Shown here: piece after piece, positions 5,495-46,364 of the stretch
Layout: each line of letters opens with the position of its first letter
How positions within the stretch are numbered: the first letter of the stretch is position 1
IMG/VR virus record: IMGVR_UViG_2648501258_000001
Span: 1 to 64,000 of that record
From: a virus
Taxonomy: Duplodnaviria; Caudoviricetes
Strand: one strand, 5' to 3'
Length of the DNA stretch: 64,000 bases
Position numbers and translations under genes: made by a program
The notes under the pieces: model-generated
What the model saw: only the letters and a program-made list of their open reading frames with translations
Told to the model about the DNA's origin: nothing
Databases searched by the model: none

Positions 5495-5611
5495 GCCCGC
5501 TGAAAAATAATGGGGGGGCCTCCCTCTGATTCCCAAACTGGATATTTTTCCGAGGTACTTAACAGAACACAAGGGGGCCTATGGCTGGCCGCCGTAAATT
5601 ATAAATAACCT

Positions 5612-5627
5612 TGGCATGGAACATGCA
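5612..5627 (+). promoter_or_regulatory. sigma54 (-24/-12) motif
   Basis: TGGCATGGAACATGCA = GG-N10-GC. Confidence 0.55.
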
Positions 5628-5640
5628 TAATTAATACCTA

Positions 5641-5656
5641 TGTTCCACGTGGAACG
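5641..5656. promoter_or_regulatory. parS-like palindrome (host ParB site)
   Basis: TGTTCCACGTGGAACG, 15/16 match to TGTTCCACGTGGAACA. Confidence 0.75.
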
Positions 5657-5873
5657 CACACCCCGCCCCGACAACCCTTTGAGCCAATGAATACAGGGGA
5701 AAACAGTATACAAGTTTCGGTATATACAACTACTTGTATTTGTGTCGCATAATATAAAGAGGATCGACCGACTAGGGGATTCTCGCACCGTTGGATAGTT
5801 ATTACACTGTGGGCATAGCTAACCCTGTGAGCGTAGGACAATGACAGAAAGAATATTATTCAATGCCCTGCAT

Positions 5874-5909
5874 TGGTATGCTATGTGCATATGTGCAAGG
5901 ATAGTGCCA
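5874..5909. promoter_or_regulatory. head-to-head pair of sigma54 motifs
   Basis: + TGGTATGCTATGTGCA (5874-5889) and - TGGCACTATCCTTGCA (5909-5894, perfect consensus). Confidence 0.7.
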
Positions 5910-6371
5910 TACGATAGCGAGTGTATATATGCATGTACCATTGGGTAGGGTAGTGGGTGATAGGGGTGGACTATGTAGGGCTTCGCCCTGATAGAAAAGC
6001 TTTTCTTGACATTTGAGTGTAAAATGTGATCGCTTCGCTTAAACATCAGGGTCTGCTAGTAGAAAGAAACCGCCATAGCACGTTTTGAGGGGTTATTATT
6101 GATAGGCCAGCCTATCGGTGGGATTAACTCTAGGCCAGGGCCTACGGGGCTTACAGGGCCTTACAAGGGTATTATCTTGACCTTCGGTCACATAGTGCTA
6201 ACCCATACCTTCGGTATGTTTTCAAACCTTTTGAGAAAGTTTAACTATATATTATTTTATATGTAAAACCATATTGGAAGGTATTACGCTCTAGCCTTCG
6301 GCTAACGGTGCAAAGCTCTATTGTGCATAGTTCCTATGCTAGAAAACTAGCAGACGTTCCGTCTAGGCATG

Positions 6372-6393
6372 AAAAAGCCCGCTCAAGGCGGGC
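6372..6393 (-). terminator. intrinsic terminator ending the early (- strand) island
   Basis: GCCCGC-CTTGA-GCGGGC followed by TTTTT on the - strand. Confidence 0.85.
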
Positions 6394-6395
6394 AT

Positions 6396-6411
6396 TGTTT
6401 CACGTGCAATA
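6396..6411. promoter_or_regulatory. second, degenerate parS-like site
   Basis: TGTTTCACGTGCAATA, 14/16 match to TGTTTCACGTGAAACA. Confidence 0.5.
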
Positions 6412-6413
6412 TG

Positions 6414-12544: not shown

Positions 12545-13153
12545 TTATAGATCCTTTATCGAGTGGATTAATGTTTCATGGACTATAGCAGACACTAGCT
12601 TAGACCGTTTTACTTCTAAGCTATGTATTATGTCTTGTGAAGCATACTGCTCTAGCCTGTACCTGTCAAGCAATTTTGTTAATTGTTCCGACTTTTCTAT
12701 TAGCCAAGCCTTGTGAGCTAGCCATTCAGAATTATAGCGGCCTAGTGCCTTTACTTTACCGCTTAGAGTGATTTGAGGGTAAAACTTAGACCCACTCATG
12801 CAAACGCCTAGTGCTAGGCCATTAGAGGCCGTCGAATTATCGAAGGTATTGTTTAGATAGGTAGGGATAAATGCACAAGTGGCAGGGCTGTACAAACTAC
12901 CATCCCCTAGAAAATCCTTATCTAGCTGCCAACCTTCTACGCGGTTTAGCTGACTCCATTCTAAGAAACTGGAGAAAGTCAACCACGATTGACAAACTTT
13001 GACGTTTGCATATGCAGGCTGTCTTCCTGAATAGCAACGCGTGACCATATCCCGCCACAACCTGTAGTGCGGGCATGTGTACTGTTTACCTTCTAAATTC
13101 CATGTAACTTTTACGGGACTATCGTTTACTCCCGCCCCGCAAACTAAACGCAT
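12545..13153 (-). CDS. HNH-type homing endonuclease with AP2-like C-domain
   Basis: GVND..YxxWxxMxxRC..WLTFSxF..LDKD..YSPxTCxF..LGV. Confidence 0.8.
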   Translation of the reverse strand: MRLVCGAGVNDSPVKVTWNLEGKQYTCPHYRLWRDMVTRCYSGRQPAYANVKVCQSWLTFSSFLEWSQLNRVEGWQLDKDFLGDGSLYSPATCAFIPTYLNNTFDNSTASNGLALGVCMSGSKFYPQITLSGKVKALGRYNSEWLAHKAWLIEKSEQLTKLLDRYRLEQYASQDIIHSLEVKRSKLVSAIVHETLIHSIKDL

Positions 13154-13598: not shown

Positions 13599-13648
13599 TT
13601 TGTAACCCTCTTTCGTTTGGTGTGCCCGTTGTGGGCGGTATGGAAGCA

Positions 13649-13677
13649 ATCTTACTGGCTTAGCTTGTCAGTGTCAA
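13649..13677 (-). promoter_or_regulatory. sigma70 early promoter
   Basis: TTGACA-17-TAAGAT. Confidence 0.75.
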
Positions 13678-13694
13678 CAAGCTAAACGATAAAT

Positions 13695-13841
13695 TTACTC
13701 ACATTCGTCCGGCAGGATGGTGATAGGAAAATCATATTCATCCTCTAGCATCTGGTAAACGTCAAGCTTTTGTGTACCCTTGACAAACCAAACTTTATCG
13801 ACGTGGCTGTGAACACCCTTGCGATAGACTTTCCAGAACAT
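13695..13841 (-). CDS. first gene of the early island (48 aa)
   Basis: MFWKVYRKG...; AAAGGT RBS; behind promoter. Confidence 0.6.
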   Translation of the reverse strand: MFWKVYRKGVHSHVDKVWFVKGTQKLDVYQMLEDEYDFPITILPDECE

Positions 13842-13891
13842 GGCTGCTTACCTTTCTACTAAAGGGAAGTTGTTTCCCTTTCTTGTTGCCC

Positions 13892-13929
13892 ATTCTACAG
13901 ACCTACAAACATACGTCAACAACTATTTT
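13892..13929 (-). promoter_or_regulatory. sigma70 early promoter with AAAATAGTTG UP element
   Basis: TTGACG-16-TAGAAT. Confidence 0.85.
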
Positions 13930-14006
13930 CATCTATTTTCTAGCAGCTACACATAAGGAAACGGGAGCGCGTGCGAATAGCATGGGAAAATATTTCTGTC
14001 AAGGGC

Positions 14007-14034
14007 TTGTTTTGCTTGTGGGCTTCTGTATAAT
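14007..14034 (+). promoter_or_regulatory. outward-facing sigma70 promoter with no downstream gene
   Basis: TTGTTT-16-TATAAT. Confidence 0.6.
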
Positions 14035-14109
14035 CATAGCTAGCAGGAACGCAAGCCTACGGGCCGGACACTGGAGTATAAGACGGGGAGGGTGGGCGTT
14101 ATTCTAAGT

Positions 14110-14143
14110 TGGCACGGCAATTGCTAGAGCAAAGATCATGCCT
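14110..14143. promoter_or_regulatory. head-to-head pair of sigma54 motifs
   Basis: + TGGCACGGCAATTGCT (perfect) and - AGGCATGATCTTTGCT. Confidence 0.75.
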
Positions 14144-14153
14144 AAATTAGTTT

Positions 14154-14191
14154 AAAATAGTTGTTGACACTGCCAACCAGAAGCGTACAAT
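14154..14191 (+). promoter_or_regulatory. outward-facing sigma70 promoter with UP element and no downstream gene
   Basis: AAAATAGTTG-TTGACA-16-TACAAT. Confidence 0.8.
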
Positions 14192-14286
14192 GACCACAGT
14201 TTCAAGCTTCCTACCGAGTTAGGAGGTGCCCACTTGTCCCAAGCGCAGCCAAGCGAGGCCAACTCCTGCCCGAGTGTTTTACATTC

Positions 14287-14302
14287 TGGCACGGGGCTTG
14301 CT
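14287..14302 (+). promoter_or_regulatory. sigma54 motif (perfect consensus)
   Basis: TGGCACGGGGCTTGCT. Confidence 0.75.
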
Positions 14303-14444
14303 AAGCTCATTCCGTGACTAAATACTCATGTTCAGTCACAAATAGATAGCATCCTATCTGATCCCAATTCTCCCTCCGATCCAATAGATAGCTCCCTACC
14401 GATGCAAATCCACATATGATGCCCATAATGTACAACCACGTGTG

Positions 14445-14580
14445 TATATTTTCAAAATTGTACAGGGCTGTAAAAAAAATCGCCCGGTTCCCAAATTTCT
14501 GTAAAAATCTGTCGTTACCTAAATTTCTATCGAGTCCCGAATTTCCACGAGACTCCTTGAGGCTGTAAAAATCTACCGAT
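14445..14580. repeat. A-tract repeat block, possible genome terminus / packaging signal
   Basis: CTGTAAAAA x3 and AATTTC x3 in non-coding DNA. Confidence 0.45.
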
Positions 14581-14583
14581 TCC

Positions 14584-15123
14584 TCAGTCTTCAACACTCC
14601 ATGTCCCCGCATGCGACTCTGCATCGAGCAGCTTGAACCTGCCTATCTCCCAACTCTTTCTTACTGCCACAGCGTCAAGCAGGCAGCGGTACATGCCCAA
14701 ACTCTTGTACTTCTTTCCTTCGGTATAATAGCTTTGGAACTTCCCTTTCGCCTCTCTCCAGCATACACCTTGCGGTAATATCCTGTTAGCTACAGCGGCA
14801 CGCCTATTGACCATCTGGACTCGATCAGATACCCACCTGCAATTCTCTTTGGAATATCCTAGCATGTCAAATCTTCTGTCCAAACTTTTACCCGCGTGAA
14901 AGTAATCTGGCAAATAAGGGTCGCCATTAAATAAGTCGGGATGTGTATCTACCATATCCCGCAGGAAATTCACGAATCCTATTTCTTTTGGCGGCATCCA
15001 CTCATCGCACACAGTAATACCTCTGCCGCCATAGTTCACCCAAGATTTGTGATGTGGTTTAGTGCAACGTGCAATCATAGCGTTCCACACTGGATACATC
15101 CGATGCCTCGATAATCTAGTCAT
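14584..15123 (-). CDS. HNH homing endonuclease with AP2-like domain
   Basis: YGGRGITVCDEW, SLDR..GYSKENCRW. Confidence 0.8.
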   Translation of the reverse strand: MTRLSRHRMYPVWNAMIARCTKPHHKSWVNYGGRGITVCDEWMPPKEIGFVNFLRDMVDTHPDLFNGDPYLPDYFHAGKSLDRRFDMLGYSKENCRWVSDRVQMVNRRAAVANRILPQGVCWREAKGKFQSYYTEGKKYKSLGMYRCLLDAVAVRKSWEIGRFKLLDAESHAGTWSVED

Positions 15124-15172
15124 TGTATTCCCCTTGGTCAAAACGAAAGTATACTTTAAATCGGAGGCAAAG

Positions 15173-15198
15173 AAAAGCCCCAGCACAAGGTTGGGGCT
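15173..15198 (-). terminator. intrinsic terminator
   Basis: AGCCCCA..TGGGGCT followed by TTTC. Confidence 0.7.
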
Positions 15199-15202
15199 AA
15201 AT

Positions 15203-15451
15203 TCATACAGCTTCTTTTCTATTGACAATCTCTTGAATGGTTGTGATACGAGTGTCAATCCATCGACGACGATAAAGATTGAAACACTTCACACGTTCTT
15301 CCTCTAACGACTTGATTTCCAACTTCAAATCTCGGATCGACTTTGCATACAAGAGCGCCAACTCTTTCTCGGTTAGCATGTCCGTTGCCTCTGTGAAGAG
15401 AACATCATTGTCCTCTTGAGTATTGTACACCTCTTGCATGCTCCTTGTCAA
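15203..15451 (-). CDS. hypothetical protein (start uncertain)
   Basis: ORF track. Confidence 0.45.
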   Translation of the reverse strand: MTRSMQEVYNTQEDNDVLFTEATDMLTEKELALLYAKSIRDLKLEIKSLEEERVKCFNLYRRRWIDTRITTIQEIVNRKEAV

Positions 15452-15460
15452 GCTACTTAA

Positions 15461-15646
15461 CTACTTGTTCTCTAAATAGTTTTTCAGTTGCTGGAGGACA
15501 GTGAATTCCTCGCTACGAATAACCCCCTCACAGCCTCGCGGCCTATAGTGGTACATCCTGCCTTCCTTGTAGATACGTCCAATCTCTGTACGCTTCCACT
15601 TGACCTTGATGTAATCGCCCGTTGGGATGGTCTGATAATTAATCAT
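15461..15646 (-). CDS. small hypothetical protein
   Basis: ATG after GGAGG. Confidence 0.6.
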   Translation of the reverse strand: MINYQTIPTGDYIKVKWKRTEIGRIYKEGRMYHYRPRGCEGVIRSEEFTVLQQLKNYLENK

Positions 15647-16757
15647 ATTTAGCCTCCTGATAGACAGTTGCGGTAAAGTGTGCTTGCGTAGCATCCTTAG
15701 CAGGTTCTCGACTAGAAGAATAATGCGTCTGGTCCTGCTTCTCAAATTTCTTAACTACTCGGTCAGGGCAATCACGGCGGCCAGGGGCATAATAGTAGCT
15801 GGTACGTTTGAGCATTGCATCTAGGTCTTTGAATTCTTCTGGCGACTCTCCCGGACGTCGAGAAGTAATCTTCACTGTCGCATTCTCAAAGGTCACAGCG
15901 AGTACAGGCTCGCTATATTCCCATTTAACCTGACCGCCATGGTGGGTTCCACGGTTGTATGACTCTTCTTGCACAGTGGATGCGAACAAGCCTACCCACT
16001 GAGTATCGCGGATCACTTCCTTACCATCGTCACGGTAATTTACAGCCTTGTAGTGTGTATAGTACGTGTAACCGCCCCGACTGCGATCCACTACACGATC
16101 AAACAACATGCGGTGCTGTGTCCACTCTAGCTTCACCATACCCACAAACTGACGCTCAGAGCCCTCAGAGCCATGCTGGTGAAGCTTGACGTAATCCCCA
16201 GGCTTCAAATCTTTCAGTCTAAGAGACTCATCTACCTTCTCAATCTCCTTGACCACTTGCTTGTACTCAGGAGCGTTGATTGGAAGCAGAATATGGCAAC
16301 CTTCCCGCCCCCATACACACTCATCCATAATCTCGCCATTGATGATAGTGCAGGATTGGATCAGGGTAGACAAGTTACCCGTTGGAATCTCTACAGTAAA
16401 GCCACGAGGATCGTGCAAACGGAACACCTTATTCTCTGTGGTCCAACGTGTGGCATCCTGTCCTACCTTAAAGCCCTTCATTGGCACGTTATCGTAGATA
16501 GCTGCATCACCCGCGTTCTCAGCCTCAAGTAGCTCTGTGATGTACTGTCCTTTATCGTCTTTGGTAAGATCACCATTAGCGTCTCTCACATACGAATAAC
16601 GAGCTGGTACATCTGCCCAGTTCTGTCCCGTGGTCATCATCTTGGTGGTGGCAGAGTCTGGAGTCCCATCACGCTTCACATTGTACGCACACATGTAAGC
16701 CAGACCACCACGACCTACAGCCTTAACAGCCCAAATCTTATCTGCAATATTGATCAT
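15639..16757 (-). CDS. conserved phage hypothetical protein (372 aa)
   Basis: DPRGFTVEI..NL motif; behind promoter 16788-16815 (TTGACT-16-TAGAAT). Confidence 0.75.
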   Translation of the reverse strand: MINIADKIWAVKAVGRGGLAYMCAYNVKRDGTPDSATTKMMTTGQNWADVPARYSYVRDANGDLTKDDKGQYITELLEAENAGDAAIYDNVPMKGFKVGQDATRWTTENKVFRLHDPRGFTVEIPTGNLSTLIQSCTIINGEIMDECVWGREGCHILLPINAPEYKQVVKEIEKVDESLRLKDLKPGDYVKLHQHGSEGSERQFVGMVKLEWTQHRMLFDRVVDRSRGGYTYYTHYKAVNYRDDGKEVIRDTQWVGLFASTVQEESYNRGTHHGGQVKWEYSEPVLAVTFENATVKITSRRPGESPEEFKDLDAMLKRTSYYYAPGRRDCPDRVVKKFEKQDQTHYSSSREPAKDATQAHFTATVYQEAKYD

Positions 16758-16868: not shown

Positions 16869-17945
16869 TTAGGCTACAACAGTGTAGTTTTTCAGCTCAG
16901 TGTTACGAATCCACCAGCCGTAACCATCTTCGGATTCCAGCTTCCATTCCGAAGTATCACCACGATCACGTTGGATGATCTTGTATTGCTTACCCGGCTT
17001 ATGTTCCTCGGTATCCTCTGGAGTTACAGCCAGGAGTGTAACACCTACGGACAGCTTACCTTCATCATGTGCAACTTGAGCAGACTTCTCCACAAACTTC
17101 AAACCATGTTTAGCTACTCGCTCCAACAGGGCTGCAAGTTCTTCTTGTGCCTTGTCCACTACCGCTTGCTTTGTAGCAACACGCTGAGTAGCTGCTTCCA
17201 GTTCTAGGGTTGCAGTAGTGATAGCAATCTTGGCTGTCTCCATCTCGGCACGCAGTGCTGCCAATTCAGTATCCAAGACGTCTACAGCAGGGGCGCTAAC
17301 AACTGCAAACGTCCAGTCTGCATAGTTACGAGTCAAACGACCGCCAGGAGTCTTAACGGCTGGACGACTATAGCCCTCGTGTTGGACTACATCGTACACT
17401 TCACCGACTTTCATGCCCCAGTGTTCATGATGACCATCGCCCTTGCTGGTGAGTTCTACTTTCATACCAACTTTCATATCTTCAATTTTAATGTCGGTTT
17501 TAACGCTTGGGCGATCCGCAGGGAGACGGTAAGCTACAATGGTAGCATTGCCAGAGCCGGTGAAAGTCCAGGTTGTTGCACTGTAGCTGTTTTCAGGCTT
17601 GTTCACAGATTGTTTCGCTTCGCCGGTGCCAGCTTTAAGGCCAAGGATCAGCGTACCATCGTTGTACAGCACGTCTACGATAGTGCCACGAGGAACAGGT
17701 ACAATGCCACGGGTATTTTCACGGTTACTGATGAAGCCTTGTTCATCTTTTGCGGAGGTTGGAACCACTACAACTGAGTTTCGACGCCCATAATCACTGC
17801 TACCATCATCAAATCGAACCGCTACACGTACATCCCCAAGCTCTGTTACAACACCTTCTTTACCGTAATTGTGGGAGTAGAATGCACCGCCAGGGACATT
17901 TTTAACTCGTACACGAGAACCGACAGCCAGAGTAGATTGAGTCAT
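16869..17945 (-). CDS. multi-domain SH3/KOW-like repeat protein with coiled coil
   Basis: several xxVGxxV repeats; behind promoter 17994-18022. Confidence 0.7.
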   Translation of the reverse strand: MTQSTLAVGSRVRVKNVPGGAFYSHNYGKEGVVTELGDVRVAVRFDDGSSDYGRRNSVVVVPTSAKDEQGFISNRENTRGIVPVPRGTIVDVLYNDGTLILGLKAGTGEAKQSVNKPENSYSATTWTFTGSGNATIVAYRLPADRPSVKTDIKIEDMKVGMKVELTSKGDGHHEHWGMKVGEVYDVVQHEGYSRPAVKTPGGRLTRNYADWTFAVVSAPAVDVLDTELAALRAEMETAKIAITTATLELEAATQRVATKQAVVDKAQEELAALLERVAKHGLKFVEKSAQVAHDEGKLSVGVTLLAVTPEDTEEHKPGKQYKIIQRDRGDTSEWKLESEDGYGWWIRNTELKNYTVVA

Positions 17946-19258: not shown

Positions 19259-19518
19259 TTATCTTTCACTCCTATCTGTAGGGTGTATTCCCCGTTACTG
19301 TCCTTCGAGAGTTCAAAATGCTCACCGTAGATGTACTCCACGGGAGTGTCATCGCCCTCATCCTTCCACTGCTGGTGGTCTACCTTAGCATCGAAGTCCA
19401 CCATGTTGCAAGTGCCTCCTTGCTGATAGTAACCTCCACCACCGAAATGCTCCAAGGTGGAGACTTTAGCACGTTGTGGCATCGTTTTCAACCACTCAAT
19501 GTATTCAGCGACTATCAC
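19255..19518 (-). CDS. hypothetical protein
   Basis: overlap-coupled ORF. Confidence 0.6.
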   Translation of the reverse strand: MIVAEYIEWLKTMPQRAKVSTLEHFGGGGYYQQGGTCNMVDFDAKVDHQQWKDEGDDTPVEYIYGEHFELSKDSNGEYTLQIGVKDK

Positions 19519-19886
19519 TTCGAGCCTCCTTCGATACGTTTAATTGTCTTCTGGAAGACCTTAACACCCATTTTCAGTCCAGCAACGCCCGCCTTCTCGA
19601 CCTGAGCCTTCAACTGATTAGCTGCATGGCTACAAGCTACCACGTTACCCTTCACATAGCCCTTCGAACAGTCGATACGATCAATTGTCAAATCAGAACC
19701 ACGAATTGGAAAGCTAGCGTGGCGGGCCTTAGTCAGCGGAAGGCCAGTGTAGTGACATTTCTTTGCACTTAGGATGTTCTTCATTGCTTGGAAGGTCATG
19801 TTGAACTCAATGCCACGTTCCCTTGCATTATCTGCCTTACGACGAAGTTTATCGGCTACATACAGATCGAAGGTTGCATCGGACAT
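19515..19886 (-). CDS. HNH-like endonuclease
   Basis: CHYTG...TIDRIDCSKGYVKGNVVAC. Confidence 0.7.
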   Translation of the reverse strand: MSDATFDLYVADKLRRKADNARERGIEFNMTFQAMKNILSAKKCHYTGLPLTKARHASFPIRGSDLTIDRIDCSKGYVKGNVVACSHAANQLKAQVEKAGVAGLKMGVKVFQKTIKRIEGGSK

Positions 19887-44832: not shown

Positions 44833-45231
44833 ATGACACATCAATACAAAGTAGGTGATCGCGTTAAACTGGTTACGAATGGTAGCTATCCCCACTACAA
44901 GCCAGGGATGGAAGGTACTGTAGTCGGCAAGTCCCGGCACGTAGGTGACGTAGTTGAGGTTGCTGTGGACGGGGATGCTAGATACCCAGAAGGCTTGAAC
45001 TTCTATCTCCGTGAAATCACTCCACTCGTAACGGACGAACTCTCAGACGTTGGAATTTTCTTCCTTATCCGTCAAAAGAAAGACGATCCTTCAAAAGTGA
45101 AGGTTTGCTGGGCAGAGTCAACCGTGTCCCGGATGTTCACTAGTCGGGAACGTGCAGAGATTGTTGCTAATCGTCAAAATTTAAACTACCCGGAGTGGAA
45201 CTACTTCGTTGTTGCAAAGGAGAGTGTATAA
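44833..45231 (+). CDS. SH3-like domain protein
   Basis: YKVGDRVKLV..GMEGTVV. Confidence 0.7.
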   Translation: MTHQYKVGDRVKLVTNGSYPHYKPGMEGTVVGKSRHVGDVVEVAVDGDARYPEGLNFYLREITPLVTDELSDVGIFFLIRQKKDDPSKVKVCWAESTVSRMFTSRERAEIVANRQNLNYPEWNYFVVAKESV

Positions 45232-46364
45232 TGGTTGAACATACTGAACGTAAACTGGCACGTATCGTCCTGATCGACTCCCTGCACCCAATCGAAGGTG
45301 CTGACCGTATCGAACTAGCAATGGTTGGTGGCTGGCAGGTTGTTGTGCAGAAAGGCTTGTATGTTCCCGGCAGTAAGGCTGTCTACTTCGAAGTAGATTC
45401 GTTGCTTCCATTGGATCGCCCATGCTTTGCGTCTCTGTCGGGTATCAGCTCGAAGCTGCAATTCGTCATCGACGGCCACCAGTATGCTCGCATAAAGACC
45501 ATGAAACTGCGTAAGCAGCTCTCTCAGGGCTTCTGTGTGCCTGCAAGCGAAGTGGTAGCCAGCCATTTGGATGTTGATACCGACATGACCAAAGCTCTCG
45601 GTGTGATCAAGTATGAGAGTGCTGGCGAGAAAGGTATGAATGGTACTCCTGGCATGAAGACTGGTTCTTCTGTGCTTGGCTTCCCGAAATTTATCCCGAA
45701 GACTGATCAAACTCGTTTGCAAAATATCCCTGTCCAGTTTGCACAGGCTCGGGACTCTGGTGAGCTGTTCGAGAAGACCTTCAAGCTTGATGGCTCTAGC
45801 CTCACTGCGTTCATTAAGGACGGCACCCTGGGAGTTGCATCTCGTAACGTTGGATTCCGGGTCAAGGATGAAATAATCCCACTGGTCACTGCCGTTAAGA
45901 GATTCTTGCAGGGTAAAGGCTGGAAGCGTGTAATCAAGGCAGATGATAATGCTTTCATTCAAATGGCAGAGAAGGCTGGCCTGCTGTCTGTACTGTCTCG
46001 GAAAGAAGTGGGGCTAGGTAATATTGCAATTCAAGGTGAAATGGTCGGCCCTTCCATTCAGAAAAACTTTGAAGGTGTTGCAGAGAACGAGTTCTACTGC
46101 TACGATATTTACTTGATTGATGAGCAGCGCTACATGCTCCCTAAAGAGCGTCAGGAATTCTGTAATAAGTATTACATCAGTCACGTTCCTCTGGCTTCTA
46201 ACCACGCTGTGACTCTGCCTGTGGATGTTGCATCTGCTATTGCTGACGCGGACGGTCCTAGCGGCCTGAAAGGTAAATACCGTGAAGGTTTTGTCTACAA
46301 GTCGATGACTCGTGACTTCTCGTTCAAGGTGATCAGTAACGCCTACTTGCTCAAGGAGGAATAA
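45231..46364 (+). CDS. RNA ligase (Rnl2/DRB0094 family) with N-terminal OB domain
   Basis: PIEGADRIE, PKTDQTR, KLDGSS (motif I), QGE, EGFVYK, SFKVISN. Confidence 0.9.
   Translation: MVEHTERKLARIVLIDSLHPIEGADRIELAMVGGWQVVVQKGLYVPGSKAVYFEVDSLLPLDRPCFASLSGISSKLQFVIDGHQYARIKTMKLRKQLSQGFCVPASEVVASHLDVDTDMTKALGVIKYESAGEKGMNGTPGMKTGSSVLGFPKFIPKTDQTRLQNIPVQFAQARDSGELFEKTFKLDGSSLTAFIKDGTLGVASRNVGFRVKDEIIPLVTAVKRFLQGKGWKRVIKADDNAFIQMAEKAGLLSVLSRKEVGLGNIAIQGEMVGPSIQKNFEGVAENEFYCYDIYLIDEQRYMLPKERQEFCNKYYISHVPLASNHAVTLPVDVASAIADADGPSGLKGKYREGFVYKSMTRDFSFKVISNAYLLKEE

Follow-up and report, generated by a model that had tools for sequence, protein, structure and literature searches.

Conserved sigma-54-type boxes, two of them face to face, in a gene-less island of a Pseudomonas myophage

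The window analyzed here, the whole stretch of 64,000 nucleotides, is part of the 97,612-bp (97.6-kb) genome of a Pseudomonas myophage whose relatives include ventosus, UAVern, Amme-3, and Bitten. Between leftward genes lies a gene-less island, NCR-B (Table 1). The homologous gaps, 391-937 bp long, are without a CDS in seven of eight annotated relatives, the 16Q gap having one annotated CDS. The promoter of the leftward operon at the left of the island shares an upstream module, AAATAGTTGTTGAC (inverted repeat I1), with the promoter P2 inside it. At the right edge, alignment revealed that an HNH homing-endonuclease gene takes the place of a bidirectional terminator present in relatives. The island was considered as a replication origin and rejected, the cumulative GC skew showing no turn at 14 kb. 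No tRNA or tmRNA was found in the window. A scan of 13600-14800 detected no intrinsic terminator-like site on the + strand and one weak site on the − strand.

Table 1. Features of NCR-B, its borders, and the second gene-less island (window coordinates).
Feature	Position	Strand	Basis or remark
Sigma-54-like box, second gene-less island, TGGCAT-GGAAC-ATGCA	5612-5627	+	perfect in ventosus and UAVern
Third perfect sigma-54 box of the genome, second gene-less island	5894-5909	−	exact-pattern scan
First gene of leftward operon, 48 aa, phrog_13300	13695-13841	−	function unknown
NCR-B, gene-less island between leftward genes	13842-14583		ORF list
Sigma-70-type promoter of leftward operon, TTGACG-16-TAGAAT	13892-13919	−	promoter scan
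P1, putative sigma-70-type promoter of RNA1, −35 TTGTTT (14007-14012), −10 TATAAT (14029-14034)	14007-14034	+	
RNA1 core, conserved structured non-coding RNA	14041-14108	+	20 related loci
36-bp near-palindrome of Box 1 plus Box 3, probable degenerate class member	14109-14144		
Box 1, perfect sigma-54 −24/−12 box, TGGCAC-GGCAA-TTGCT	14110-14125	+	predicted start near 14136
Box 3, mirror-image sigma-54-like box, AGGCAT-GATCT-TTGCT	14128-14143	−	predicted start near 14117, towards leftward operon
P2, strong sigma-70-type promoter of RNA2, TTGACA (14164-14169), 16-bp spacer, TACAAT (14186-14191)	14164-14191	+	scan
RNA2, structured non-coding RNA, hairpins H1, H2, H3	14198-14286	+	double changes, fold
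Box 2, perfect sigma-54 −24/−12 box, TGGCAC-GGGGC-TTGCT	14287-14302	+	predicted start 14313
Conserved hairpin GTGACT...AGTCAC, always 11 nt past Box 2	14314-14339	+	
Two copies of a small hairpin repeat, AATAGATAGC.CCTA	14341-14398	+	
Four iteron-like direct repeats, CTGTAAAAATC...TTCC.AAATTT, function unknown	14466-14592		kept in relatives of both clades
HNH homing-endonuclease gene, island right edge	14584-15258	−	phrog_374, E 2.9e-39

P1 and P2 appear to drive conserved structured RNAs with covarying stems. P2 scored 11 of 12 matches in the promoter scan, is kept in the alignment, and ends 95 bp ahead of Box 2. P1 ends 75 bp ahead of Box 1; it was not flagged by the window scan because its −35 element is weak, and its role as a promoter is suggested by TTG and TAnAAT columns that are invariant in nine phages. 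Sigma-70 promoters about 75 and 95 bp upstream of the two + strand boxes had been proposed in a first-pass annotation, and both were recovered, P2 by the scan and P1 by these columns. The inner hairpin of RNA1 was found with at least nine different stem sequences, all of them pairing when checked per sequence, and a CNG/CNG pair covaries (A-U in 10, G-C in 5). RNAalifold returned only a 3-pair helix, because MAFFT had put two hairpin registers out of step. A pattern scan for RNA1 gave 11 stretches, from which three (L017, L022, and L025) were dropped as unrelated coding DNA. In RNA2, which folds in the window with z = −2.44, the pairing of H1 survives double changes between the window, ventosus, and Amme-3, and in the predicted H3 the −24 element of Box 2 pairs with an upstream UGCC. 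A first pattern scan for further RNA2 relatives yielded three stretches identified by alignment as unrelated coding DNA, a second yielded only locus L015, and a metagenome scan yielded the contig of L015 itself and one unrelated high-GC contig. Rfam gave no match at the gathering score in the window, leaving RNA1 and RNA2 without a family, and a relaxed search of 13900-14650 gave only four chance-level matches (E 4-6, 13-16 bits).

Box 1 and Box 2 match TGGCAC-N5-TTGCW exactly, while Box 3 has two mismatches that spare the GG and GC dinucleotides, its −24 element being degenerate in the window (AGGCAT). The −12 GC dinucleotides of Box 1 (14123-14124, + strand) and Box 3 (14129-14130, − strand) are separated by 4 bp. 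Re-reading of the sequence thus reproduced the original description of three boxes, two perfect and two face to face. A pyrimidine precedes every box and a G follows TGGCAC in most; the extended sigma-54 consensus is said to be YTGGCACGr. The exact pattern occurs three times in the window, compared with a mean of 0.14 in 100 shuffles, none of which reached three, and the entire 97,612-bp genome holds the same three matches and none to the reversed-pattern control. These sites are not spread through coding DNA, all three lying inside two gene-less islands. At the aligned place of the perfect box in the second island, ventosus has TGGCAC-GAGTT-ATGC. When one mismatch was allowed, four matches were found in the window against 3.02 expected; enrichment, which the first-pass annotation had singled out as a check, is therefore seen for exact sites and not at one mismatch. 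A looser core, GGCAY-N6-TGC, gave eight matches against 4.55 expected (at least eight in 15 of the 100 shuffles), five of which fall in the two islands that make up ~2.6% of the window.

Comparison with related phages revealed that the boxes are kept while their spacers change. For Box 1, TGGCAY and the GG-N10-GC spacing are present in 10 of 10 related genomes and TTGC in nine of 10, with six different spacers, and for Box 2, TGGCAY-N5-TTGCT is present in all nine genomes that have the module, with four different spacers. Amme-3 and Roomu-2 are isolated phages with these boxes. At the place of Box 3, ventosus, UAVern, Amme-3, Bitten, and the relative G002 have either TGGCAT or TGGCAC; in L015 the spacing of this box differs by one, and in KoPa-4 no match lies there at up to two mismatches. 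Exact sites number 19 in five ventosus-like genomes, compared with two for the reversed control, and nine in five KIL/phiPsa-like genomes, compared with none. In G002, a perfect box, TGGCACGTTCTTTGCT, stands a short way upstream of the sigma-70 promoter of the leftward genes and points towards them. The Box 1 module is also present a second time in this relative, in a different intergenic gap, where it faces a 130-nt stretch ending at a terminator. The Box 1/3 cassette (14095-14154) appears to be dispensable, because a natural metagenome variant carries 26 other letters in its place, which are also palindromic.

The face-to-face pair appears to be a degenerate member of a recurrent class. The class pattern, TTGGCAY-N5-TTGC-N4-GCAA-N5-RTGCCAA (also with WTGC/GCAW), offsets the two boxes by 18 bp; the window near-palindrome keeps this geometry and matches 34 of the 36 positions (it ends ...ATGCCTA), and G002 carries the full pattern. 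The full palindrome was found in at least 120 viral contig stretches, compared with nine in 596 Gb of bacterial and archaeal genomes. When the one-sided pattern was reversed as a control, it matched 64 stretches, in no case on both strands or in more than one copy. Positions left unspecified follow the sigma-54 consensus, with a purine after TGGCAY in 37 of 37 cases and W after TTGC in 33 of 37. Among the matches listed, 99 of 145 palindromes lie outside crude ORFs, and 49 of the 111 with genes on both sides lie between divergently transcribed genes. In two types of palindrome-bearing contig, the downstream genes include those for endolysin and the large terminase, and in other phages the palindromes form tandem arrays of three to four with a 52-55 bp period. 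A literature search outside the subscription journals found no paper on palindromic or face-to-face sigma-54 boxes in phages. The facing pair had at first been thought unlikely to act as ordinary promoters; since the palindrome is recurrent and often lies between divergent genes, its geometry is no argument against promoter function, and the class at divergent junctions fits a compact bidirectional promoter. Sequence comparison thus shows that the sites are present, enriched, and conserved in the manner of binding sites, and it links them to a phage-wide class; they are very probably real RpoN (sigma-54) sites.

What lies downstream of the two + strand boxes is conserved and structured. The earlier statement that no gene follows holds for both + strand boxes, after which the ORF list and the relatives revealed no conserved ORF; it fails for Box 3, which faces the leftward operon from 13841, the operon that has a perfect box directly before it in G002. 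Small ORFs over Box 2 were rejected as genes, one frame being closed in Bitten and the other shortened in the window and in ventosus (the latter read by eye). The spacing between Box 2 and the GTGACT...AGTCAC hairpin is 11 nt in nine of nine genomes, although the 11 nt themselves differ, and one pair of the hairpin stem switches from U-A to C-G. This fixed spacing fits a defined start better than a simple roadblock. A scan for Box 2 followed by 11 nt and GTGAC gave 16 stretches, which is within chance for the pattern. In the metatranscriptome library of a relative, a 130-nt insert with adapters at both ends spans Box 2 (14239-14368), which is weak evidence of transcription because the insert may be DNA. 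The RNA-library contigs, from four public runs, come from relatives only (at most 0.16 of the sampled words occurred in any run) and cannot show starts, ends, or strand; stretches that they leave uncovered carry no information.

The best explanation, which we hold with moderate confidence, is that the boxes are genuine sites for the host sigma-54 (RpoN) polymerase and, most likely, enhancer-dependent promoters. A promoter of the sigma-54 type gives no transcript before an ATP-driven activator has opened it, and an rpoN-dependent start is expected 11-13 nt downstream of the −12 GC. From the DNA letters we infer RpoN binding, firing, start sites, and the identity of the activator as follows. Box 1 and Box 3 would form one compact, near-palindromic, bidirectional promoter, firing rightward into P2 and RNA2, and leftward, antisense to RNA1, towards the leftward operon. 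Box 2 would be a single promoter whose start falls at the foot of the conserved hairpin, giving a non-coding transcript across the hairpin repeats and iterons. The island would then most likely alternate sigma-70 and sigma-54 promoters (P1, Box 1/3, P2, Box 2), and the boxes would provide the non-coding RNAs and the neighboring operon with a second, sigma-70-independent input.

Control of this second input would fall to an activator of the host, as the phage has none of its own. Searches with PF00158 and PF14532 found nothing at E ≤ 1 in the phage; among its 96 ORFs of at least 120 aa, a Walker A motif was present in only one and a GAFTGA-like motif in none; and PF00158 was found in none of five other palindrome-bearing contigs. 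Two large neighboring ORFs, of 372 and 358 aa, matched nothing in Pfam at E ≤ 0.01 and no PDB sequence with an E value under 0.38. K-mer sharing revealed no upstream activator site, the shared k-mers belonging only to the sigma-70 promoter module, and by eye no fit was seen to the consensus sites of FleQ, NtrC, or CbrB (the last from PMC6296734).

A different and more tentative proposal takes the 36-bp double box as a phage-specific class that loads host sigma-54 polymerase without a phage enhancer-binding protein. Such a box might be fired both ways by a non-classical phage factor or by a host activator from solution, or it might hold a non-firing closed complex that serves as a clamp, an insulator, or a polymerase store. 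If this were true, the tandem arrays with a 52-55 bp period would be loading platforms; such arrays would also be the expected look of a loading or sink function.

It is unlikely, in our judgment, that the RpoN holoenzyme truly binds the boxes but does not fire there, as the clamp idea of the first-pass annotation has it. Stable closed complexes would then stop or pause the sigma-70 transcripts RNA1 and RNA2 with defined 3′ ends, insulate neighboring transcription units, or titrate sigma-54 or core polymerase as phage DNA accumulates. The missing activator gene, in the phage and in the five other palindrome-bearing contigs, would suit such sites, as would their perfect, high-affinity-looking consensus, the tandem arrays, and the fact that a palindrome can be bound either way round. 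Nor was an intrinsic terminator found by scan between RNA1 or RNA2 and the boxes, and the box hairpins lack a following T run and do not qualify as intrinsic (Rho-independent) terminators. As described in passages of PMC4591121 and PMC3844500, many of the places where sigma-54 binds in E. coli and Salmonella lie inside genes or are orphans, lacking an evident gene downstream, and may hold an inactive closed complex. Those sites are mostly intragenic and single (same passages), whereas the phage boxes lie in gene-less islands, include perfect matches to the consensus, are conserved as sites, and comprise one palindrome. Firing is, however, the better fit to the constant 11 nt between Box 2 and the hairpin and to the palindromes enriched at divergent junctions (among the matches listed), and it would accord with the Box 2-spanning insert if that insert is RNA. 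The three to five sites per genome in the clade are few for a sink, and another palindrome can replace the Box 1/3 cassette. A related suggestion, that the boxes cap a DNA end, finds no support, since nothing locates the region at a DNA end.

An improbable alternative is that the letters are constrained mainly as RNA, or by another DNA-binding protein, and that their likeness to sigma-54 sites is secondary. Here the GGCA/UGCC pairing would form a 3′ hairpin of RNA1 (Box 1/Box 3) and H3 of RNA2 (Box 2). The + strand is indeed the likely RNA strand, because of its G-U pairs, GNRA loops, and conserved sigma-70 promoters, and a palindrome stands directly after the RNA1 core in every related phage, being GAGAAT-GA-TTCTC in the KIL/phiPsa clade and ATATGCA-TTTG-TGCATAT in the metagenome variant. 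The pairing of H3 is likewise retained in the window, ventosus, and Amme-3 despite a wholly different inner stem, and since the −24 element of Box 2 is paired beside a covarying stem, a constraint at the RNA level may add to or replace that at the DNA level. In Box 1/3, however, only the −24 and −12 blocks are complementary and the 5-nt spacers are not, an arrangement ill suited to a hairpin but exactly that of two sigma-54 sites. Covariation is seen in neighboring stems and never in the paired GGCA/UGCC letters, and unrelated phages carry the same motif with sigma-54-like preferences at its free positions; the small ORFs over Box 2, not being conserved, lend the RNA reading no help either. 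A single dimeric protein is a misfit, as GGCA...UGCC and UGCC...GGCA both occur and their spacings vary. That the boxes are functionless chance matches is scarcely credible: the lack of excess at one mismatch would suit this reading, but the exact-site excess, retention in 9-10 related genomes with variable spacers, and near-zero reversed controls refute it as far as sequence statistics can.

Dual promoters of this kind have bacterial parallels. The sigma-70 and sigma-54 promoters of glmY/glmZ reportedly overlap and share a start, whereas those of the island are in tandem, 75-95 bp apart, with structured RNA between. The common element is dual sigma-70/sigma-54 control of a small RNA gene, as a passage of PMC3045617 describes it for Enterobacteriaceae. 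In Pseudomonas, the same host genus, the crcZ sRNA gene combines an RpoN promoter with read-through from an upstream promoter (passage of PMC5113210), and crcZ/crcY (RpoN and CbrB) thus resemble the island in joining sigma-54 control of a non-coding RNA with constitutive read-through from upstream. They differ in being chromosomal and in having defined upstream CbrB subsites, TGTTAC and GTAACA (passage of PMC6296734). That arrangement was not recognized in the island, where a CGTTAC was seen only past Box 2, within one of the iterons.

Among phages, Pseudomonas phage YuA has a sigma-54-like promoter, with P015 mapped by ONT-cappable-seq (Ceyssens 2008, cited in PMC10914365). As described in that passage, YuA too is lytic on Pseudomonas, lacks an activator of its own, and has sigma-54-type beside sigma-70-type promoters; it is an unrelated siphovirus, the likeness is by description, and the passage says nothing of a palindromic arrangement or of a gene-less RNA island in it. 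PAK_P3, from a related myophage group, makes two abundant intergenic RNAs of ~100 nt, sRNA1 and sRNA2, for which the relevant part of PMC4933390 reports no sigma-54 link. No sequence likeness to these RNAs was seen, the blastn matches all falling within the KIL/Otago/ventosus group.

A whole clade of Pseudomonas myophages thus conserves perfect sigma-54 sites in RNA-making, gene-less islands, and the present island holds at least two previously undescribed conserved structured RNAs. To our knowledge, lytic phages are not known for reliance on sigma-54 promoters. The face-to-face pair appears to be a degenerate copy of a palindromic design, common among uncultivated phage genomes and almost absent from bacterial ones, that is often placed at divergent junctions and also found ahead of lysis and packaging genes. 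If the sites do not fire, closed polymerase complexes would serve phages as structural marks on DNA. If they fire, phages would own a compact bidirectional sigma-54 promoter for which they must borrow or replace the activator, and the sites would offer a handle on how phage gene timing is coupled to host physiology.

The 64-kb window is the first part of a virus record of 97,612 bp, and its DNA matches the KIL/Otagovirus/ventosus group of Pseudomonas myophages (61 records, 60 of them Pseudomonas phages). Nearly all genes from ~6 kb to 44 kb are directed leftward, and the three candidate sigma-54 (RpoN) boxes lie in this region, within a gene-less island of 742 bp (13842-14583). The island is flanked by two HNH homing-endonuclease genes, the right one standing in place of a bidirectional terminator (GCCCCGC...GCGGGGC) of ventosus, UAVern, and Amme-3. 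Seven of the first eight annotated relatives retrieved have an un-annotated gap (391-937 bp) at the equivalent position; a single CDS is annotated within the gap of 16Q, and in KIL4 predicted promoters alone are annotated. Two large proteins of 372 and 358 aa (15639-16757 and 16869-17945, both on the minus strand) lie directly to the right, and matched nothing in Pfam or in a PDB sequence search. The iteron-like repeats at the right end of the island could serve as an origin or as an array for a regulator, or could be motifs of an RNA.

Features of the two gene-less islands and their borders (window positions)
Feature	Position	Strand	Remarks
HNH homing-endonuclease gene	12545-13153	-	left-side flank of island
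48-aa gene, phrog_13300	start at 13841	leftward	left border of island
Sigma-70 promoter of leftward operon	13919-13892	-	
P1, sigma-70 promoter	14007-14034	+	weak in window; deduced from TTG and TAnAAT columns that are invariant in nine phages
RNA1 core	~14041-14108	+	
Box 1	14110-14125	+	
Box 3	14143-14128	-	
P2, sigma-70 promoter	14164-14191	+	
RNA2	~14198-14286	+	
Box 2	14287-14302	+	
Hairpin GTGACT...AGTCAC	14314-14339		
Two small hairpin repeats	14341-14398		
Four iteron-like direct repeats, CTGTAAAAATC...TTCC.AAATTT	14466-14592		conserved in both phage clades
HNH endonuclease gene, phrog_374	14584-15258	-	its stop is right border of island
Sigma-54-type box	5612	+	island 5511-6413
Sigma-54-type box	5909	-	island 5511-6413
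Sigma-70 promoter, TTGACA	near 6006		island 5511-6413; conserved
Perfect 14-bp palindrome GTTCCACGTGGAAC			island 5511-6413

The strands and coordinates of the three boxes proposed in the first-pass annotation were confirmed on the sequence, as were the 4 bp between the -12 GC pairs of Boxes 1 and 3, and the sigma-70-type promoters upstream of the plus-strand boxes, the weaker P1 being recognized by its conservation. The exact motif TGGCAC-N5-TTGCW occurs three times in the window, compared to 0.14 expected, a count reached in none of 100 shuffles, and the whole genome contains the same three sites and none for the reversed control. With one mismatch allowed, four matches were found in the window versus 3.02 expected, so that the excess is limited to exact matches. 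Rather than being spread evenly through coding DNA, all three exact sites fall within two gene-less islands that make up ~2.6% of the window, as do five of the eight window matches to the looser core GGCAY-N6-TGC. The second island (5511-6413), located at the switch of gene direction, shows 71% mean column identity with ventosus, and its long conserved non-coding stretches probably encode further RNAs. The homologues of its boxes are perfect in ventosus and UAVern, with constant flanks and a changing spacer.

Box conservation was examined in ten ventosus-like genomes (the window, ventosus, UAVern, Amme-3, Roomu-2, KoPa-4, Kassivere, Bitten, and two related IMG/VR genomes, G001 (L015) and G002 (L021)). 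Box 1 is present in all ten, with TGGCAY and the GG-N10-GC spacing kept throughout, TTGC in nine (ATGC in Bitten), and six different spacers. Box 2 reads TGGCAY-N5-TTGCT, with four different spacers, in all nine genomes that carry RNA2; in G002 the second RNA is a different one. Ten KIL/phiPsa-like loci contain RNA1 but no box there, and carry GAGAAT-GA-TTCTC palindromes instead. Genome-wide, exact sites numbered 19 in five ventosus-like genomes (2 for the reversed control) and 9 in five KIL-like genomes (0 for the control), several of the latter being in coding DNA, where they may reflect chance or coding conservation.

P1 and P2, which had been described as gene-less, precede conserved structured RNAs, and therefore drive non-coding RNAs. 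No other piece of the island is conserved as widely as RNA1, whose core is present in 20 of 20 related loci examined, KIL/phiPsa clade included (RNA1 loci: the window, L001-L008, L015-L024, and L057-L060). It consists of ~70 nt in two sequence types, with a strongly covarying hairpin, and with a conserved sigma-70 promoter in front. At least nine different stem sequences were found in its inner hairpin (GCC/GGC, GGC/GCC, GCGC/GCGC, GGCG/CGCC, GACU/GGUC, GACC/GGUC, GCAC/GUGC, GUAC/GUAC, and GGC/GCC with a longer loop), with pairing kept in all, and the flanking CNG/CNG pair is A-U in 10 sequences and G-C in 5. In RNA2, seven pairs of hairpin H1 survive double changes among the window, ventosus, and Amme-3, and the RNA2 stretch of the window forms a better fold than shuffled versions of it (z = -2.44). 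Both RNAs are assigned to the plus strand by their G-U pairs and GNRA loops, together with the conserved promoters. Neither matched an Rfam family, and no description of either was found in the full-text literature (subscription journals and supplements lying outside this scope); RNA1 appears to be a family of phage RNAs not described before.

The face-to-face arrangement of Boxes 1 and 3 recurs far beyond this group. A one-sided pattern derived from it matched more than 119 IMG/VR stretches, many two-stranded and with several copies, whereas the reversed control matched 64, none two-stranded or multi-copy. The full 36-bp palindrome, TTGGCAY-N5-WTGC-N4-GCAW-N5-RTGCCAA, which has the geometry seen in the window (18-bp offset, 4 bp separating the GC pairs), was found in at least 120 viral stretches and in only nine stretches of cellular DNA (596 Gb, 185,579 genomes of bacteria and archaea). 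Of these nine, five are on small contigs from Leptospira, and the others on four contigs of three MAGs. The Leptospira contigs (L259, L260, L263, L265, and L266; 1.9-6.8 kb, three species) may be phage or plasmid DNA. The window copy is degenerate, with a perfect plus half and AGGCAT in the minus half; that of G002 satisfies the full pattern. Single consensus boxes numbered 334 in 1.06 Mb (the 119 loci listed for the one-sided scan), compared to none in 0.58 Mb of control loci, and five larger palindrome contigs hold 30 exact boxes versus 1 for the control, many as plus/minus pairs at the 18-bp offset. At positions left free in the pattern, TGGCAY is followed by a purine in 37 of 37 cases and by a purine as second base in 31 of 37, and TTGC by A or T in 33 of 37, preferences that agree with the sigma-54 consensus.

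Among the matches listed, 119 palindrome-carrying viral loci, with GC contents of 0.30 to 0.64, contain 145 copies (117 distinct), 99 of them outside crude ORFs. Of the palindromes listed with genes on both sides (n=111), 49 are at divergent, 49 at co-directional, and 13 at convergent junctions. Two to four copies occur in 17 of the loci listed, and 16 of the 18 close pairs among these matches are spaced 52-55 bp. Tandem arrays of two to four palindromes with this period (L290:313-456, L301:7738-7881, L295:5836-6038, L272:1520-1610) sit in unrelated viral contigs, with further single boxes alongside, all facing one way. The arrays of the viral loci L272, L117, and L137 precede a gene without assigned function, an endolysin-like gene, and the large terminase gene, and in two contig types endolysin and large terminase are among the genes downstream of the palindrome.

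Binding of the host sigma-54 holoenzyme is the simplest account of two different conserved blocks at a fixed spacing, and a probable one. The blocks are identical to the sigma-54 consensus; unrelated phages have them too, and they are seen alone as well as in mirror-image pairs. That the boxes are in addition firing promoters, giving the RNA island and the leftward operon a further input that is gated by an activator and independent of sigma-70, is an evenly balanced proposition; Box 1/3 would then act as a compact bidirectional sigma-54 promoter and Box 2 as a single one. Firing is favored by the enrichment of palindromes at divergent junctions and ahead of late genes, by a gene-facing box in G002, and by the fixed distance to the conserved 5′ hairpin. 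Exactly 11 nt, themselves variable, separate Box 2 from this hairpin in 9 of 9 genomes, which would place a canonical sigma-54 start (12 nt past the C of GC) at 14313, the hairpin foot; one stem pair of the hairpin switches from U-A to C-G. G002 has a perfect box, TGGCACGTTCTTTGCT, directed at the leftward protein genes, immediately upstream of their sigma-70 promoter, so that genes do follow a box in at least one case. Another intergenic gap of G002 contains a second copy of the Box 1 module (box, 11 nt, CATGCCA), arranged back-to-back with a sigma-70 promoter and pointing into ~130 nt closed by a bidirectional terminator. Alternating sigma-70/sigma-54 signals are thus a recurring design in this group. 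RNA-library contigs of relatives cover 14074-14403, and Box 2 lies within a single 130-nt insert that has an adapter at each end (14239-14368), which is weak evidence because RNA libraries can contain DNA.

The first-pass annotation had proposed that the boxes may be RpoN clamps, bound but non-firing. The predicted RpoN sites are retained, but the clamps are unlikely, the divergent junctions, the G002 box, and the hairpin distance making promoters the better reading. The idea stays alive because no activator is encoded by this phage or five other carriers, and no upstream activator site was found; the tandem arrays fit a clamp as well. Neither PF00158 nor PF14532 gave a match at E<=1 in the phage, which also lacks a sigma-54 DNA-binding domain; a Walker A motif is present in only 1 of 96 ORFs of at least 120 aa, and a GAFTGA-like motif in none of the 96. 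PF00158 was likewise absent from all five larger palindrome-bearing contigs. Judged by its predicted proteins, the phage encodes no enhancer-binding protein. A phage AAA+ protein whose fold is like that of enhancer-binding proteins, but which lacks the GAFTGA loop, is described in the available part of a 2026 preprint, where sigma-54 polymerase is proposed as its target (10.64898/2026.10.06.757011); unconventional phage activators are therefore under consideration. A 389-aa RNA ligase (45195-46364, plus strand; PF09414 and PHA02142 OB fold) is also encoded, and, as a thought, tRNA damage and an RtcR-type sigma-54 activator could link it to the boxes. A 123-aa protein (19515-19886, minus strand; no Pfam family), with two weaker paralogues near 47.2-48.8 kb, is homologous to the Srd-type "decoy of host sigma-70" proteins of T4, and is 54% identical to a KIL4 'putative anti-sigma factor'. 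Its PHROG matches include Srd anti-sigma factor and decoy of host sigma-70, but the best is an HNH endonuclease family, so that the anti-sigma identity is a lead only.

It is quite improbable that the conserved letters are instead constrained at the RNA level. Such a constraint would account for the Box 2 -24 element being paired in hairpin H3, and for some palindrome always following RNA1. In one DNA metagenome, a co-occurring variant has 14095-14154 (Box 1/3) swapped for 26 other letters with a 7-bp palindrome, indicating that the cassette is exchangeable, and the KIL/phiPsa clade carries up to three GAGAAT-GA-TTCTC palindromes in the same slot; the slot is thus always palindromic, with changing sequence. 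However, the RNA-level explanation leaves the non-complementary spacers unexplained, the paired GGCA/UGCC letters show no covariation, and the exact motif recurs elsewhere. Small ORFs over Box 2 were ruled out as an explanation, since they are not conserved.

For sigma-54 promoters at the island, the closest known logic, going by the accessible part of the source, is that of Pseudomonas crcZ, with an RpoN promoter and read-through from an upstream promoter (PMC5113210). The closest phage precedent in the available excerpts is a sigma-54-like promoter of phage YuA (PMC10914365), and the accessible portion of the KIL paper describes sigma-70-type promoters only (PMC4791379). Within the same full-text literature, again outside subscription journals and supplements, no phage was described as having sigma-54 boxes in a palindromic or face-to-face arrangement. 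The odd face-to-face geometry noticed in this phage is that of a widespread, virus-enriched palindromic element of sigma-54 type.
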